A DNA stretch of 64,000 nt from an uncultured Planctomycetales bacterium. Its GTDB lineage: Bacteria; Omnitrophota; Gorgyraeia; Zapsychrales; Zapsychraceae. Shown piece by piece: positions 7,846 through 58,784 of the stretch (its first letter is position 1; every line of letters starts with the position of its first letter). The notes beneath the pieces were generated by a model, which searched no databases, was not told the DNA's origin, and was given only the letters and a program-made list of their open reading frames with translations. A program made the translations under genes and the position numbers. The DNA is taken from contig CAZHWM010000007.1 in assembly GCA_964535935.1 (NCBI GenBank), positions 37,708-101,707 on the forward strand. The letters are read 5' to 3'.

Positions 7846-7884
7846 CTGATGATACAATTTAATAAAGTTAAATTGTACCATCAG
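7846..7884 (-). other. 17-bp stem / 5-nt loop hairpin between proA and nadD (RNA element of unknown role)
   Basis: ctgatgatacaatttaa-taaag-ttaaattgtaccatcag. The single imperfect position is A/C on the plus strand but G.U on the transcribed minus strand. It starts 2 nt after the proA stop and is not followed by a U-tract. Confidence 0.6.
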
Positions 7885-9147: not shown

Positions 9148-10239
9148 CTATTTCCCCATTAACAAAAGATTATTTCTATGAATTAATTCTTGGCGACCTT
9201 TTTTATCTTCTATCTTATTTAGTTCAGCTACAGAATAATTTATTACTCCTCTGGCTATCTCTATACCATCTTTATCAAAAACTGATACTACATCTCCTTT
9301 TTTAAAATATCCATCCCATGAAATAATACCGGGCAAAAGAAGACTTTTACCTTTATTAACCAATGCATCCTTTGCCCCATCATCTATCACAACCTTACCT
9401 TTAACCTTTGCTTGAAATGCTATCCAATGCTTTCTTGCAAGTATCTTATCCTGTTTCTCTACAAAATACGTACCTATATGTTCGCCTGTGATTATCCTTG
9501 TCAACACATCACGGACCATACTACTAGCAACTATACATGGTATCCTTGCATGAGCTGCTATCTTTATAGCATCCAACTTAGCCGCCATTCCGCCCTTTGA
9601 CATCTTACCTTTCATAGGGCCGCCGGCAATACGCTCAATCTCTGCAGTTATCTCTTTTACTTCACTTAAAACATGCCTTTCACCATCCTTTAGTTCATAT
9701 AACCCTTCTACATCTGAAAGAATAATCAACAAATCTGCATGTAGCAGACTTGCAACAAAGGCCGAAAGCCTATCATTATCTCCAAATCGTATCTCATCTA
9801 TAGCTATAGTGTCATTTTCATTAACTATTGGAATAACGCCCTTTTCCAAAATAGACAACAAGGTTTTTTTTGCATTATTATTCCTCTTACGATTATCAAA
9901 ATCGTCCCATGTCAAAAGAACCTGAGCACAATGCAAATTTTTACGTTTAAATAATTCAGAGTATGCTCTCATCAAAACCGTTTGACCAACAGCTGCAAAT
10001 GCCTGTAAAGACGCCACATCATTTTTAATTATATGCCTTTCTCTTAACTCTCCTATCCCCAAAACAATAGCACCCGAACTTACAACAACAATCTCTATAC
10101 CCTGACTATGCGTAAAAGCTATCTGCTTGATTAAAGAGCGTAACCACCGTCTATTCGGAAGAAAATTCTCATCTGCAATAGCTGCAGAACCTATTTTTAC
10201 TACAATACGTTTTAACGGCCTAGGAAATTTCCTCAACAT
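9148..10239 (-). CDS. proB: Glutamate 5-kinase (with C-terminal PUA domain)
   Basis: 363 aa. Amino-acid kinase fold (VVKIGSAAI, VVSSGAI, FGDNDRLSA) plus a PUA-like tail. Its stop is 1 nt from the proA start. Confidence 0.95.
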   Translation of the reverse strand: MLRKFPRPLKRIVVKIGSAAIADENFLPNRRWLRSLIKQIAFTHSQGIEIVVVSSGAIVLGIGELRERHIIKNDVASLQAFAAVGQTVLMRAYSELFKRKNLHCAQVLLTWDDFDNRKRNNNAKKTLLSILEKGVIPIVNENDTIAIDEIRFGDNDRLSAFVASLLHADLLIILSDVEGLYELKDGERHVLSEVKEITAEIERIAGGPMKGKMSKGGMAAKLDAIKIAAHARIPCIVASSMVRDVLTRIITGEHIGTYFVEKQDKILARKHWIAFQAKVKGKVVIDDGAKDALVNKGKSLLLPGIISWDGYFKKGDVVSVFDKDGIEIARGVINYSVAELNKIEDKKGRQELIHRNNLLLMGK

Positions 10240-10314: not shown

Positions 10315-11274
10315 TTAAGACAAAAAATTTTTTATCTCTTTTAAAAGTGGTTTTAACCCCCTCTTCTCCATAGCTGATATGGCAAAGACCTTTTCATTAT
10401 ACTTTCTTTTAAACCTTGCAAGATTTATTCGGGCCTGAGGAATATCCATTTTATTCGCAACAATAATCTTGTTTTTAAAACTAACCTCTTCGCTATATTC
10501 TTCTAGTTCACGGACTATCTGCTCATAATCAGTTAATGGATCTCTTCCATCTGTTGCTGCCATGTCTATAACATGTAAAAGAAGTCTCGTCCGCTCTGCA
10601 TGTCGTAAAAATCTTAGCCCCAATCCCCTGCCTTTATGGGCATCTTTTATTAGCCCAGGTAAATCTGTCATAATAAAACTAAAATCTCCATCGGATACCA
10701 CCCCAAGAACAGGGTACTTTGTAGTAAATGGATAGTTGCCTATTTTAGAGGTCACACGTGACATAGCAGAAATAAGAGTTGACTTGCCAGCATTCGGACA
10801 ACCAATAATTCCTACATCAGCAATCAGTTTTAACTCTAAACTAATCGTCCTTTTCTCTCCCTTACCCGGAGCAACTACTGTCTTGTTATTTGCATTACCT
10901 ATACCTCCTTTGCCACCTCTTGCAACAGTTACTGATTGCTTATCTGTATTAAGGTCCTTTATTAAAAGTCCTGTATCATAATCGCGTAAAATAGTTCCTA
11001 CAGGGACCCGAATAACACAATCCTTACCATCTCTACCTTTTTTACCTTTACTGCTGGCATTCCCTCCTTTCTGTGCCTTATAATGCTGCTTAAATCTAAA
11101 ATCCAACAAAGTCTGTATAGATCTATCAGCGATGAAAACAACATCTCCACCTTTACCGCCATCTCCTCCATCTGGACGGGGATAACGCATATATTTCTCT
11201 CGATAATAGCTCTCACATCCCTTACCGCCGCTACCTGCTTCTACATAAATCTTGGCCTCATCTACAAATATCAT
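10315..11274 (-). CDS. obg: GTPase Obg (short form, no C-terminal extension)
   Basis: 319 aa. Glycine-rich Obg fold (FVDEAKIYVEAGSGGKGC, DGGDGGKGGDV) then GTPase motifs G1 GCPNAGKST and G3 DLPGLI. Confidence 0.95.
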   Translation of the reverse strand: MIFVDEAKIYVEAGSGGKGCESYYREKYMRYPRPDGGDGGKGGDVVFIADRSIQTLLDFRFKQHYKAQKGGNASSKGKKGRDGKDCVIRVPVGTILRDYDTGLLIKDLNTDKQSVTVARGGKGGIGNANNKTVVAPGKGEKRTISLELKLIADVGIIGCPNAGKSTLISAMSRVTSKIGNYPFTTKYPVLGVVSDGDFSFIMTDLPGLIKDAHKGRGLGLRFLRHAERTRLLLHVIDMAATDGRDPLTDYEQIVRELEEYSEEVSFKNKIIVANKMDIPQARINLARFKRKYNEKVFAISAMEKRGLKPLLKEIKNFLS

Positions 11275-53628: not shown

Positions 53629-54369
53629 TTATAAAATTCTTTCCAACAACTCTGAAAGATAATTCAATGTCGAAACAACCCTCTCATAATCCATACGCGT
53701 AGGACCAAGCACAGCAATCCGCCCCTTCGGCCCTCTTTTGGGCTCATATCTAGAAACTACTAATGAACAACTACTATTAATATCAGAACAAGCTATCTCG
53801 CTACCAATAAAAATCTCTAATTTATTAACAAGATCCTGATTAATTACTTCTAACAATCGTTGCTTCTCATCTAATGCATTTAATATCTGGGCTATTTTTT
53901 TAATATCATTATAATCAGGATAATTAACTACAAAACTGGTCCCTTGACAAAACAATTTATTCTGCCATCCCTCAACAGAAACAATACTTGTATAATGTGT
54001 TGTCTCCGCTAAAACTCGAGATGTTTTCTCAAGAAGAGCCTCCAACTCCATACTTTCACGTTCATACTCAGCTTTAATCCGCTCCTTCTCCTCCTCAAGC
54101 AATTGAATTTCGTTCATCAAATTATCCACATAATAACGATACCCTTTCTGTGTAGGCACACGACCTGCTGAAGTATGCGGATGAGTAAGATACCCCTCCT
54201 GCTCAAGCTCAGCCAAAATATTTCTAATTGTAGCCGAACTCAATCCTTCAAAAAACTGTTTAGTAATATAATTAGAACTTACTGGACTAACCGTCTTAAT
54301 ATACTGTTCTATAACAATACTTAACACCCTATCTTTTCTTGCCTGCATATCAACCCACCTTGCAGACAT
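53629..54369 (-). CDS. hrcA: Heat-inducible transcription repressor HrcA (short form, 246 aa)
   Basis: Winged-helix N-terminus (RKDRVLSIVIEQYIKTVSPVSSNYI...GYLTHPHTSAGRVPTQKGYRYYVDNLM) and a C-terminal GRIAVLGPTRMDYERV motif. It heads the hrcA-grpE-dnaK unit behind a CIRCE. Confidence 0.88.
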   Translation of the reverse strand: MSARWVDMQARKDRVLSIVIEQYIKTVSPVSSNYITKQFFEGLSSATIRNILAELEQEGYLTHPHTSAGRVPTQKGYRYYVDNLMNEIQLLEEEKERIKAEYERESMELEALLEKTSRVLAETTHYTSIVSVEGWQNKLFCQGTSFVVNYPDYNDIKKIAQILNALDEKQRLLEVINQDLVNKLEIFIGSEIACSDINSSCSLVVSRYEPKRGPKGRIAVLGPTRMDYERVVSTLNYLSELLERIL

Positions 54370-54412: not shown

Positions 54413-54439
54413 TTAGCACTCTTGACCTAAGAATGCTAA
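54413..54439. promoter_or_regulatory. CIRCE operator (HrcA binding site)
   Basis: TTAGCACTC-ttgacctaa-GAATGCTAA. This has one mismatch to the consensus TTAGCACTC-N9-GAGTGCTAA. It lies immediately downstream of the promoter -10 and 44 nt upstream of the hrcA ATG. Confidence 0.85.
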
Positions 54440-54495: not shown

Positions 54496-55185
54496 CTATT
54501 CTTTTAATTTCCATTTTAACCTTTTGACAATTGTCAACATCTTCTGACAATAATCTTCTATCGAGGCCACATCACTATAAAGAAAGCGGAGGTTTGGTAA
54601 AAATGGGGCCTCAAATGGATAAAAATCCATTATCAACTCACTTTCTTCTATCCTTAAAGAAACAAATGGATATCCCGGACCTTTAGTATTTTTAAACTCC
54701 GAAAATATACGTACAATCTTATCGTCATTCAAAATTTGTTGAACCAACTTCATATTATTAGTAGTAACATCAAATAAAGATAATTCTTTTGGCATCTTAA
54801 AATGTAGCTGTCGTCTATGCAATTTACTATCCATACCTGTTGATTCCAAAATACTACTATGTCTGACTAAGTCTCCTGTCTTTTCTATAAAACTCATATT
54901 AAACTTTCCTGGCATTAAGACTTTAAGTCGTGCTCTATACACATTTCCCCTAAATCCATGTTCCTCTATATCCTCAAATACAAATTCTTCTTCGTCAAAA
55001 TTAAAAACTATCCTAAAACAATTTTCCTGATCTTCAATAGGTTGAAAACTGCTTCCCACAAAATCCTCAAATTGTTTTAAAAACTCCTCCCTTGTCTTTC
55101 CCTTCGATTGAAGTTGACTACATACAAATAAAATTCCTCCTATAAAGACCAAGATAACAAATAAAAGATATGGCGTCATTACCAT
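54496..55185 (-). CDS. Hypothetical membrane-anchored protein
   Basis: 229 aa. One N-terminal TM (PYLLFVILVFIGGILFV) and an acidic soluble domain. I recognise no motif. Confidence 0.5.
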   Translation of the reverse strand: MVMTPYLLFVILVFIGGILFVCSQLQSKGKTREEFLKQFEDFVGSSFQPIEDQENCFRIVFNFDEEEFVFEDIEEHGFRGNVYRARLKVLMPGKFNMSFIEKTGDLVRHSSILESTGMDSKLHRRQLHFKMPKELSLFDVTTNNMKLVQQILNDDKIVRIFSEFKNTKGPGYPFVSLRIEESELIMDFYPFEAPFLPNLRFLYSDVASIEDYCQKMLTIVKRLKWKLKE

Positions 55186-55490: not shown

Positions 55491-58076
55491 CTAACGCCCC
55501 ACATCTATATTAAGTCCAGCATCTCCCCTACTGACCCTTAGCGAATCCCCTTCTCGTATTTCTCCTTTTAGAAGTTTTAATGCAACAGGATCCTGAACTA
55601 ACTTCTGTATCACCCTCTTCAGTGGTCTAGCCCCATAAACAGGATCGTAGCCTCTTTCACTTAAATAATCCTTAGCGTCATCAGTAAGATCAATAGAAAT
55701 ATTTTTTTCTGAAAGACGCTGCTTAAGTATATCTATTTGGATATCAACTATGTGCTTAATATCCTCTTTACCCAATTTATTAAAAATAACAATCTCATCA
55801 ACACGATTCAAAAATTCCGGTCTAAAATGTTCTTTTAATGCTGAATGAATTCTTTTTTCTATTTCTGTGGAATCATCCAAATCCATTATCATCTCAGTAC
55901 CTATATTAGAAGTCATAATGATAATAGTATTCTTAAAGTTCACTATACGACCCTGTCCATCAGTAAGTCTTCCGTCATCAAGTATCTGTAATAAGGCATT
56001 AAACACATCTCTATGTGCCTTTTCTATCTCATCAAATAAGACAACCGCATATGGTCTACGCCTTACAGCCTCCGTTAACTGGCCACCTTCATCATAGCCT
56101 ACATAACCTGGAGGCGCACCTATAAGCCTAGACACACTATGCTTTTCCATATATTCACTCATATCAATGCGTATCATGGCATTTTCATCATCAAACAAAA
56201 ACCATGCAAGAGATTTAGCAAGTTCAGTTTTTCCAACCCCAGTAGGGCCTACAAAGATAAAAGAACCCAACGGTCTATTAGGATCATTTAGTCCTGTTCT
56301 CGAACGCCTGATGCATGATGCAATCATATCAATTGCCTTATCTTGGCCTACTACACGCTTCTTAAGACTTTCCTCAATATTAATCAATTTTTCTGTCTCA
56401 GATTCCATCAATTTTGCCAACGGTATCTTTGTCCATTTAGATACAATCTGGGCTATATCCTCGTCGCTAACCTCTTCTTTAAGCATACATCCTTGCTTCT
56501 GTAATCTCGCTAACTCCTCGTTATATTTAGTTAACTCCTTCTGTAGTTCAACAAGCCTACCATACCTTATCTCAGCAACCTTGCCAAGATCTCCTTCCTT
56601 TTCATATTGAGAAGCTTGCAACCGTGCCTTTTCTATCTCTGCCTTTATGGCACGTATTTTCTCTATAACCTGCTTTTCCCCTTGCCAACGCACACGTAGT
56701 TTCTTATTTTCCTCTCGCAATGCATTCAACTCTTGCTCTAACTTCGCAAGCCTTTGCTTAGATGCTTCATCTGTTTCTTTTTTTAATGCCTGTTTTTCAA
56801 TCTCAAGTTGACGAATACGCCTCTCATTGATATCTAACTCCTGCGGCATACTGTCTATTTCAATGCGAAGACGGGAGGCTGCCTCATCAATAAGATCTAT
56901 TGCCTTATCTGGGAGAAAACGATCACTAATGTAACGATGCGACATCACAGCCGCAGCAATAATAGCAGAATCCTGAATGCGCACCCCATGATGAACCTCA
57001 TAACGTTCCTTAAGCCCTCTTAAAATAGCAATAGTATCCTCGACTGTAGGCTCCCTTACTATAACTGGTTGAAACCGTCGTTCAAGTGCAGCATCCTTCT
57101 CTATATACTTTCTATATTCATCAAGAGTAGTTGCCCCAATACAACGCAACTTACCCCTTGCAAGCGCGGGCTTCAACATATTGCCAGCATCCAATGAACC
57201 TTCTGCCTTGCCAGCACCTACAATAGTATGCAATTCATCTATAAAAAGTATTATCTGCCCAGCCTTAGATTCTATCTCCTTCAATACAGCCTTAAGCCTA
57301 TCCTCAAAATCACCCCTAAATTTTGCACCTGCGAGCAATGCACCTACATCAAGGGCTACAACCCTCTTTCTTTTAAGCCCTTCAGGGACATCCCCAGAAA
57401 CTATTCTCTGGGCAAGTCCTTCTACAATAGCTGTTTTCCCAACACCAGGCTCACCTATCAACACAGGATTATTTTTCGTCCTACGACTTAAAACCTGAAT
57501 AACCCGCCTAATCTCCTCATCACGTCCAATTACAGGATCTAATTCACCTTCTTCTGCCAACTTTGTCAAATCTCTACCATATTTATCTAAAGCCTGATAT
57601 TTATCCTCTGGATTATTATCTGTCACCTTCTGTCCCCCTCTCATCTCTTCAAATACCTTTAATATCTCCTGTTCACCAATACCATTTCTTCTTAAATCCT
57701 CAGCTAATATATTATTACCTGCCTTATATAAAGCAAGAAAAACATGCTCTTGAGATACATACTCATCCCTCATCCTCGAGGCTATCTTTTGCGCCTGACG
57801 AAGCACATCATTCAAAGACTGAGATAAAAATGGCTGCTGATTAGAACCTTCTACACTTGGCTTCTTCTTTAACTCCGCCTCCAACTTGGCAAGAATATCT
57901 TCTACAGGGATATTAAATCTATTCAACAGGGATGAAAACATCCCTTCCTCTTCCTTTAACAAAGAATAAATTAAATGCTCCGGCTCTATCTGTTGATGCC
58001 CAAACTCATATGCAAGCTCAACACTCCTCTGTATTGCCTCCTGATTTTTTATAGTAAATTTATCTAATCTAAACAT
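55491..58076 (-). CDS. clpB: Chaperone/disaggregase ClpB
   Basis: The internal ATG at 58074-58076, with RBS AAAGGGGGAAAGG, gives [18 protein letters not shown]..., a typical ClpB N-terminus. Two AAA+ modules ([18 protein letters not shown]) flank a long coiled-coil middle domain. The ORF-track start at 58136 lies inside the leader inverted repeat. Confidence 0.95.
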
Positions 58077-58101
58077 TAGCCTTTCCCCCTTTAACTTATT
58101 G

Positions 58102-58172
58102 TATTCTGCACTATTTAACCTTGTTGATTTGTGCATTTTTCACTATTTAACAAGGTTAAATAGTGCAGAATA
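58102..58172. repeat. 24-bp perfect inverted repeat (23-nt spacer) in the clpB leader/promoter region
   Basis: tattctgcactatttaaccttgtt (58102..58125) is the exact reverse complement of aacaaggttaaatagtgcagaata (58149..58172). The 11-mer cactatttaac occurs at 58109..58119 and 58141..58151, and inverted at 58155..58165. Confidence 0.85.
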
Positions 58173-58196
58173 GCACTCTATGATATTAAGTGCTAA
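58170..58196. promoter_or_regulatory. CIRCE-like element upstream of clpB
   Basis: Minus strand reads TTAGCACTT-aatatcata-GAGTGCTAT. This has two terminal mismatches to TTAGCACTC-N9-GAGTGCTAA and abuts the inverted repeat. Confidence 0.55.
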
Positions 58197-58213
58197 TTAA
58201 AGAATAAAAAAAT

Positions 58214-58528
58214 TTATTGTTTTTTCTTTAAAATATTAGCTTTTTCTTCCTCAATTCTTAAAATCATTTTAACTCCATTTATATTAACACCCTTTTGATT
58301 TATCAGATACCGCACATAGCTGAGTTTTTCTATTTGTACCTTTGAATAGCAACGAGTGCGTTTGCCAATTCGTTTAGGTCTAACAATGCCCAGCTCATCC
58401 AATTTACGCAATGTCCATATCGGCAGACCAACCATCTCGCTTGCAACACTGATAACAAACAACGGAGCCTCAGGATTAATCTCAACCTTAAATCCTTTTT
58501 GTCCCTGTTGTTGTTTGTCCCCACCCAT
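58214..58528 (-). CDS. hspR: MerR-family heat-shock regulator (HspR-like)
   Basis: 104 aa. MerR-type HTH (LFVISVASEMVGLPIWTLRKLDELGIVRPKRIGKRTRCYS) plus a short coiled coil. It lies directly upstream of clpB, as known HspR regulons include clpB. Confidence 0.75.
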   Translation of the reverse strand: MGGDKQQQGQKGFKVEINPEAPLFVISVASEMVGLPIWTLRKLDELGIVRPKRIGKRTRCYSKVQIEKLSYVRYLINQKGVNINGVKMILRIEEEKANILKKKQ

Positions 58529-58572: not shown

Positions 58573-58601
58573 AATATATCATACTGCAAATAAATTGTCA
58601 A
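58573..58601 (-). promoter_or_regulatory. Candidate sigma70 promoter of the hspR-like gene
   Basis: Minus strand reads TTGACA (58601..58596), a 17-nt spacer, then TATATT (58578..58573), about 45 nt upstream of the ATG with RBS AAGGAG. Confidence 0.55.
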
Positions 58602-58784
58602 GTCTATCTAATCAAAAAAATTAGTTTTTCTAACCGTAACAATAATAAATTTATCACTTCTTTTAACTAATAAAAAAAAGATACACTAAATTAGAACATT
58701 AAAATTCAACCCAAATTTTTAATTACAAATAATAAGTTGATATAACTTCCGGATAAGTTTAGAGTTAGATTAGATAAGAAAGGA

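Follow-up and report, generated by a model that had tools for sequence, protein, structure and literature searches.

A dispersed REPIN-like repeat in the clpB leader of an uncultured Omnitrophota bacterium

Background

[quoted passage not shown] A GTAG or CGTC tag at one end marks two large REP superfamilies (PMC3733652). It is not a defining property of REPs in general. The repeat family described here resembles the REPIN/RAYT systems of Pseudomonas fluorescens (GI-GIII) and Escherichia coli (REP/BIME, TnpA-REP) in several respects: it is made of short imperfect palindromes present in many copies and almost only extragenic, its unit of two inverted REPs and a short spacer folds as a long hairpin, repeats lie on either side of an IS200-like HUH/Y1 transposase gene, and the copies persist vertically at orthologous sites of sister species, often between genes of one operon. 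It differs from them in its host, the uncultured phylum Omnitrophota, and in its REPs, which are AT-rich with a 3-nt loop (those of the two named systems are GC-rich) and end in TATYCTGCAC and GTGCAGRATA without a GTAG or CGTC tag. Furthermore, its transposase falls under the NCBIfam RAYT cut-off (70.6 versus 80) and has an extra C-terminal HTH region, and the outer stems found at shared sites vary between sister species. No link of Omnitrophota to REPs or RAYTs was found in the literature searched.

Three other described systems are relevant to the locus. The Correia elements of Neisseria are MITEs, small palindromic repeats in gene leaders that are co-transcribed and form long hairpins, which can act as RNase III substrates or as a source of promoter hexamers. 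The repeat upstream of clpB is also a small palindromic repeat in a gene leader, but Correia elements measure 100-155 bp, have 26-bp terminal repeats and a TA duplication, and lack both a Y1 transposase and a singlet form. The CIRCE/HrcA system is recognizable at positions 58170-58196, which fit the 9-N9-9 consensus with 2 mismatches at a conserved position, and in an hrcA gene with its own CIRCE; however, this likeness concerns only an element next to the large repeat and sharing 3 nt with it. With the HAIR/HspR system of Streptomyces and Helicobacter the locus shares an HspR-like gene of the MerR family directly upstream in a chaperone operon. In this case the differences are that CTTGAGT-N7-ACTCAAG is not matched, that the repeat is dispersed and occurs also at non-heat-shock loci, and that the repeat at the hspR promoter is TTAG-N5-CTAA.

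Results and discussion

Organization of the clpB leader

The window, that is, the whole stretch of 64 kb that was analysed, has on its minus strand an HspR-like gene followed by clpB, with a gap of 137 nt between the stop of the former (58214) and the ATG of the latter (58076). The features of this region are the following.

55491..58076, minus strand: clpB, 861 aa counted from the ATG at 58076
About 58080-58092, clpB-sense: Shine-Dalgarno of clpB, AAAGGGGGAAAGG
58102..58172, unstranded: REPIN, a 71-nt REP doublet with boundaries matching the conservation drop in 39 doublets, a 71/71 copy at L104 and 81 distinct sites elsewhere
58102..58133, unstranded: clpB-proximal REP, inverted, the imperfect palindrome CACAAATCAAC-AAG-GTTAAATAGTG plus outer stem CAGAATA
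58134..58140, minus strand: 7-nt spacer between the REPs, AAAAATG in clpB sense
58141..58172, unstranded: promoter-proximal REP, the perfect palindrome CACTATTTAAC-CTT-GTTAAATAGTG plus outer stem TATTCTG
58170..58196, minus strand: CIRCE operator, presumed HrcA site of clpB, TTAGCACTT-N9-GAGTGCTAT, its last 3 nt common with the REPIN end
58214..58528, minus strand: HspR-like gene of the MerR family, 104 aa, PF13411

An earlier reading made from the sequence only had described this leader, and all of its elements were found at the coordinates given. The perfect 24-bp arms (58102-58125 and 58149-58172, with a 23-nt spacer) are present and had no equal in 100 shuffles. Allowing for mismatches they lengthen to 32 nt with 91% complementarity and a 7-nt loop, and no other inverted repeat in the window comes near this one in size. 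The 11-mer CACTATTTAAC occurs, as had been claimed, twice directly and once inverted (58109+, 58141+ and 58155-), all three copies being inside the repeat, and has no other exact copy in the window. The HspR-like character of the upstream gene was likewise correctly recognized: its best NCBIfam family is HspR, at 73 bits and so below the curated cut-off of 105. Homologues of this small protein belong nearly all to Candidatus Omnitrophota and are found throughout the phylum.

The clpB leader as RNA folds at -49.3 kcal/mol (z = -8.9) and the 71-mer as DNA at -24.3 kcal/mol (z = -10.7). The stem of the leader hairpin has 24 perfect pairs, worth about -37 kcal/mol, and the hairpin ends 9 nt ahead of the clpB Shine-Dalgarno with no anti-SD within it. 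An RNA thermometer, opening under heat shock so that clpB can be translated, would suit an element sitting in a heat-shock gene leader with two alternative folds. Nevertheless, a stem of this size is much too stable to open at physiological temperatures, the hairpin stops short of the Shine-Dalgarno that it would have to cover, and the same element precedes unrelated genes (see below), making this reading extremely improbable. A scan of the region against Rfam gave only sub-threshold matches to miRNA-type or generic hairpins. Neither was any intrinsic terminator (a GC-rich stem with a U-tract) detected, with 0 terminator-like sites in the region and a tail past the hairpin reading ATAAGTTAAAGG, in agreement with the earlier statement that this is not a simple terminator. 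As for the clpB promoter that had been proposed, TCAACA-18-TACAAT, the hexamers do exist and score 9/12, but the match is no better than chance, with 6 such sites in the region against 4.5 expected.

The inverted repeat is a doublet of REPs

On the clpB-sense strand the REPIN reads TATTCTG-CACTATTTAAC-CTT-GTTAAATAGTG-AAAAATG-CACAAATCAAC-AAG-GTTAAATAGTG-CAGAATA. It is built from two REPs of 32 nt in inverted orientation around a 7-nt spacer, and each of them is an imperfect palindrome of the form CAC-W-AAC N3 GTT-W-GTG. The two 25-bp palindromes have their starts 32 nt apart, and inverting the first gives the second together with its outer stem. Comparison of 39 non-identical doublets showed 80-100% conservation within TATYCTG...CAGRATA, dropping to background directly outside, and the edges of the conserved segment correspond exactly to 58172 and 58102 in the window. 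The spacer was AAAAATG in 25 of these 39 doublets and CATAATG in 12. Both the triplicated 11-mer and the alternative hairpins arise because each REP is palindromic and the two REPs are inverted. The mutually exclusive hairpins that had been pointed out in the leader are real as alternative folds, but they are a built-in feature of a REP doublet.

REPs are scattered through intergenic DNA

A single metagenome scan with the degenerate REP palindrome CACWAWTYAAC-N3-GTTRAWTWGTG retrieved 120 matches in 58 loci, with several matches per contig on many of them and many doublets in the 32-nt register of the window. Most came from JGI Ga0256914 and from NCBI assembly VAPK01, the latter being the same assembly that bears the exact hspR locus of the window. 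After de-duplication, the scan and look-up loci together (364 kb) contained 81 distinct REP sites, 44 singlets and 37 doublets, so that the singlet, 39 nt long, is as common as the doublet. The REP core lay outside all ORFs of at least 90 aa at 60 of the 81 sites, in DNA with an ORF coverage of 79%; at the remaining 21 it clips the end of a naively called ORF, by 2-48 nt. One copy (L104:1341-1411) is identical to the window doublet at 71/71 positions and sits between a 90-aa ORF and the gene of an Era-like GTPase. Other copies adjoin secretin, TPR, histidine-kinase and response-regulator genes, and no chaperone gene was seen as neighbour of another copy among 80 or more intergenic sites. The proposal that the 24-bp repeat and the 11-mers form an HspR operator or a thermosensor does not survive this result: the element is a dispersed REP-like sequence at many unrelated loci, an outcome that the sequence-only reading had itself named as speaking against it.

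In the 83 kb contiguous with the locus (the 64 kb of the window plus 19 kb walked out from both ends) no further REP copy was found. The window does contain, at 7846-7884 between two co-directional genes, an AT-rich hairpin with 17-nt arms at 94% (CTGATGGTACAATTTAA...TTAAATTGTATCATCAG), the core of which matches the REP half-site at 9/11 positions. Judging by this resemblance, it may be a decayed member of the family.

Three Logan contigs from two species (L046, L050 and L051) end 68-69 nt past the hspR stop, that is, inside the REPIN. Evidently the palindrome breaks short-read assembly, a practical point to bear in mind with REP palindromes of this kind.

Other identities were considered and discarded. 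Integron attC sites came to mind for the AAC/GTT motifs and the kb-scale spacing of copies in contig L088. In attC, however, RYYYAAC and GTTRRRY stand at the outer ends, and in each REP AAC and GTT are central and 3 nt apart; besides, the genes between the L088 copies form an ordinary conserved operon, also found in the sister species, and no integrase was seen. The CRISPR and tandem-repeat readings were dropped for the irregular spacing.

A Y1 transposase gene flanked by REP doublets

One of the REP-bearing contigs encodes a transposase.

L088:9411-10388 (= L110:10001-10978): Y1 transposase ORF P0121, PF01797 Y1_Tnp

P0121 matched PF01797 with 35.9 bits, above the cut-off of 23. Its best NCBIfam family was the REP-associated tyrosine transposase (REP_Tyr_transpos; E = 1e-19), with the 70.6 bits that leave it below the curated cut-off, and the IS200 family gave just 16 bits. 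Both a HUH motif (HLH) and a tyrosine motif, YIHLNPVKAG, are present. REP doublets lie on both sides of the ORF, at 9357-9413 and 10370-10426 (L088/L110), and the transposase of the sister species (L112) is likewise flanked by REP elements on both sides. Homologues of P0121 with the C-terminal HTH region are widespread in Omnitrophota. The RAYT-like proteins of the phylum (such as L088:9411-10388 and L112:10001-10906) have about 300-325 aa, and the HTH-like region gave weak matches to sigma-70 region 4 and to HTH_7/HTH_23. The stop codon of P0121 falls inside the downstream REP.

Two assemblies, ERZ27262694 and GCA_006243085.1, contain both P0121, seen on one contig per assembly, and the hspR-clpB locus of the window. 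Its orthologue in MAG GCA_054039975.1 (84% by BLASTP, 83% by tblastn) has the same gene neighbourhood, and this MAG also holds the sister hspR-clpB locus, L045. Protein identities are similar in the two contig pairs, window and sister on one side and transposase contig and sister on the other. The co-occurrence in assemblies and the binning of the sister MAG suggest that the transposase contig and the window come from one genome. Mobilisation of the REPs by the Y1 transposase seems the most likely explanation of their spread; the family would have been scattered in the intergenic DNA of this Omnitrophota lineage, as singlets and as REPINs of two inverted 32-nt REPs with a 7-nt spacer, by a REP-associated tyrosine transposase of the IS200-like HUH/Y1 type, the gene of which has copies of the repeat on both sides.

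A MITE with TYCTGCAC terminal repeats and a TA target duplication, moved by a DDE transposase and not by Y1, would also produce sharp boundaries with TA conserved at both ends. Correia-type MITEs are similar in size and palindromic build. However, 39-nt singlets are as common here as doublets, the Y1/IS200-like transposase, with copies on both sides in two species, is the only one seen beside them, and the fetched loci, which are partly annotated, showed no DDE transposase with matching ends. We regard a MITE as improbable.

Orthologous sites in a sister species

Four contigs of the same species (L048, L049, L116 and L117) have a leader identical to that of the window. The closest different organism is the sister species represented by L045 (MAG GCA_054039975.1), with proteins 88-96% identical. 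In its clpB leader the CIRCE and CACTATTTAACCTTGTT are unchanged and are followed by GATTTGTGACAT and then by the distal half only of the second palindrome, amounting to one intact REP of GTCAC type plus half of another. The hspR-clpB gap is 16 nt shorter (121 versus 137 nt), and the spacing between sites is 23 nt versus 32 nt in the window. The sister hairpin folds at -23.6 kcal/mol, pairing being kept through G-U pairs on the sense strand. L045 has a second copy, a perfect one, AAATGTCACTATTTAAC-CTG-GTTAAATAGTGACATTT, just past greA.

Within 19 kb the sister MAG has 11 REP copies, and the intergenic sites that they occupy are orthologous to REP sites of the window species. The sister copies are mostly singlets with ATGTCAC...GTGACAT stems, whereas the window species has doublets with CTGCAC...GTGCAG stems. 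Comparing contigs L110 and L112, five orthologous intergenic gaps have REPs at the same positions, with outer stems and copy form specific to each species. The clpB leader conforms to this pattern, with a doublet in the window and a GTCAC-type REP and a remnant in L045. Since the leader is occupied in both species, the insertion must have preceded their split, and the copies either evolve concertedly or are renewed at their sites. We propose that one copy was inserted between the CIRCE and the ribosome-binding site of clpB at a time when the window and sister lineages had yet to separate. Repeat biology would gain from this phylum an AT-rich REPIN family and an HTH-extended Y1 transposase, with orthologous sites bearing differing variants.

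Heat-shock control of clpB

A genome scan for relatives of the hspR gene provided 44 related loci. At least 35 of them have clpB downstream of hspR, and in about 22 loci an Hsp20 gene stands between the two; in the window lineage, the sister species and about eight others hspR is directly next to clpB with no hsp20 there. The regulatory sites near hspR and hrcA in the window, besides the CIRCE listed above, are these.

54413..54439, minus strand: second CIRCE, 1 mismatch, upstream of hrcA
58206..58212, minus strand: T-run, preceding the CIRCE at a fixed distance in relatives
58573..58601, minus strand: strong hspR promoter of sigma-70 type, TTGACA-17-TGaTATATT, 11/12 with an extended -10
58596..58635, minus strand: candidate HspR operator, GGTTAGAAAAACTAA (58635-58621) plus ATTAGATAGACTTGACA abutting the -35

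The CIRCE of clpB has 2 mismatches to TTAGCACTC-N9-GAGTGCTAA, with about 0.01 matches expected by chance. The CIRCE-like site that had been noticed overlapping the repeat by 3 nt is therefore well founded, and it is conserved: a CIRCE with at most 3 mismatches directly follows hspR in 38 of the 44 loci, where the best background matches have 8-9 mismatches. The hrcA gene lies in the window 4 kb from this CIRCE and scores 229.9 bits, above the TIGR00331 cut-off of 197.2. HrcA control of clpB can be soundly presumed, since the CIRCE is conserved and hrcA, with a CIRCE of its own, is so near. From the sequences compared, clpB is most plausibly regulated by the CIRCE/HrcA pair, perhaps together with transcription that starts at the hspR promoter. 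Heat-shock control would thus act on clpB through the adjacent CIRCE and HrcA, possibly with read-through from an HspR-controlled hspR promoter, and not through the repeat.

The -35 of the hspR promoter (CTTGACA) is conserved in nearly all relatives. About 20 nt upstream of it nearly all loci have an inverted repeat of the type AGTTAGATAATCTAACT, with a second ATTAGA abutting CTTGACA. TTAG-N5-CTAA was found upstream of hspR in 35/44 loci against 19/900 control windows. This motif, unlike the HAIR consensus, is the better candidate for the HspR operator of Omnitrophota. In 32/33 loci the end of a run of at least 6 T (usually TTTTTTTTG) is exactly 9 nt from the CIRCE that follows, and inspection of the relatives by eye gave no consistent -10 at a fixed distance from T-run and CIRCE. 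The run might be an UP or -35 element, or might pair as RNA with the purine-rich SD.

The large repeat would be an HspR operator if its two palindromic sites, one of them in the spacer of a clpB promoter, mediated dual HrcA/HspR control. Dual control by these two repressors exists in Helicobacter pylori, the centres of the two 25-bp palindromes are separated by 32 bp, or roughly three helical turns, and a weak promoter-like match does overlap the proximal palindrome. Against this, at least 80 unrelated intergenic sites have the palindromes, and at none of them was another chaperone gene seen as a neighbour. The palindrome of the window is absent from the 44 Omnitrophota hspR loci, more than 40 hspR-clpB loci in which the regulator is kept and its HTH residues are invariant. 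The promoter match is at chance level, and the spacing of 23 nt in the sister species differs from the 32 nt of the window. Finally, no match to the HAIR consensus CTTGAGT-N7-ACTCAAG with up to 3 mismatches was found in or near the leader, as the earlier reading had already noted, and the hspR promoter has a conserved inverted repeat of another kind. Of the dual control suggested for clpB, the HrcA part is supported by the conserved CIRCE, but HspR acting through the 24-bp repeat is highly unlikely.

We consider instead that the inverted repeat is, with high probability, a REPIN insertion with no dedicated heat-shock role. Counting against this are the lone copy in the 83 kb around the locus, the transposase score below the RAYT cut-off with the extra C-terminal HTH region, the missing GTAG/CGTC tags and the terminal TA, which could be a MITE target duplication. 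A false lead would be removed in this way, the striking palindrome in a heat-shock leader being repeat DNA and neither a new operator nor a thermosensor. The heat-shock wiring of an uncultured phylum also becomes clearer, with a conserved hspR-(hsp20)-clpB operon, a CIRCE directly after hspR and TTAG-N5-CTAA as candidate operator.

Two other observations concern the same cluster. HrcA of the window (53629-54369) has 246 aa for a family model of 338 positions and matches it in two stretches, with the same length in the sister species; a middle segment of the protein appears to be missing in the window lineage. Between clpB and hrcA, at 54496-55185, there is a 229-aa ORF with no Pfam or NCBIfam match, which we count as an uncharacterised member of the heat-shock cluster because it is conserved in the sister species (88%).

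Hairpins ahead of clpB in other Omnitrophota

If transcribed, the REPIN would give the clpB leader a hairpin of great stability (about -37 kcal/mol), and any effect of it would be a by-product or a later co-option. Related loci with a short hsp20-clpB gap (L001, L008, L009, L014, L016, L017, L019, L024, L025, L031, L032, L035-L038 and L041) all have a strong hairpin that lacks a U-tract and lies 0-38 nt ahead of the clpB ATG (16/16). The median of these pre-clpB hairpins is -32.8 kcal/mol versus -14.6 in 64 other co-directional gaps (Mann-Whitney p = 3e-8). They have no common sequence and are conserved in position only, and within the 8-kb loci no second copies of them were found. Among the relatives without hsp20, L018 and L022 have unrelated GC-rich hairpins between CIRCE and clpB, and six others (L004, L020, L028, L034, L039 and L043) have no hairpin before clpB.

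The REPIN could then serve at present as a stable stem-loop upstream of the clpB ribosome-binding site (an intercistronic mRNA stabiliser, a partial terminator or an RNase III processing site), uncoupling the expression of clpB from that of hspR or hsp20. Such a function would add to a REPIN origin and not replace it. The strong hairpins in all 16 short gaps and in the two hsp20-less loci argue for it, as do the occupation of the clpB site in both window and sister species and the pairing kept through G-U on the sense strand of the latter. A perfect 24-bp stem where relatives have hairpins could mean selection for structure, a point that also weighs against the lack of any role. Effects of REPs on mRNA turnover and attenuation have been reported (PMC3479197, PMC3337134). 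On the other hand, the six hsp20-less relatives do without a hairpin, the sister copy has lost half of its second REP and reaches only -23.6 kcal/mol, and the same element is found in many gaps without a common gene function. Overall, we take a present RNA function to be possible and rather unlikely, and infer that the repeat lacks a dedicated regulatory role. More doubtful still is an extended version, in which the co-opted REPIN replaced an ancestral, phylum-wide stem-loop and sets the clpB:hspR ratio through RNase III processing, attenuation or stabilisation, within an undescribed Omnitrophota REPIN system with an HTH-fused RAYT and copies renewed in place.

A different kind of repeat was observed between hsp20 and clpB in two related loci (L021:1605-1990 and L026:4811-5061), which have two to three tandem units of about 100 nt or longer (ACACGACC.AGGGAGTGTAAACTAGAAATGCGAATTGATCCTTC...).
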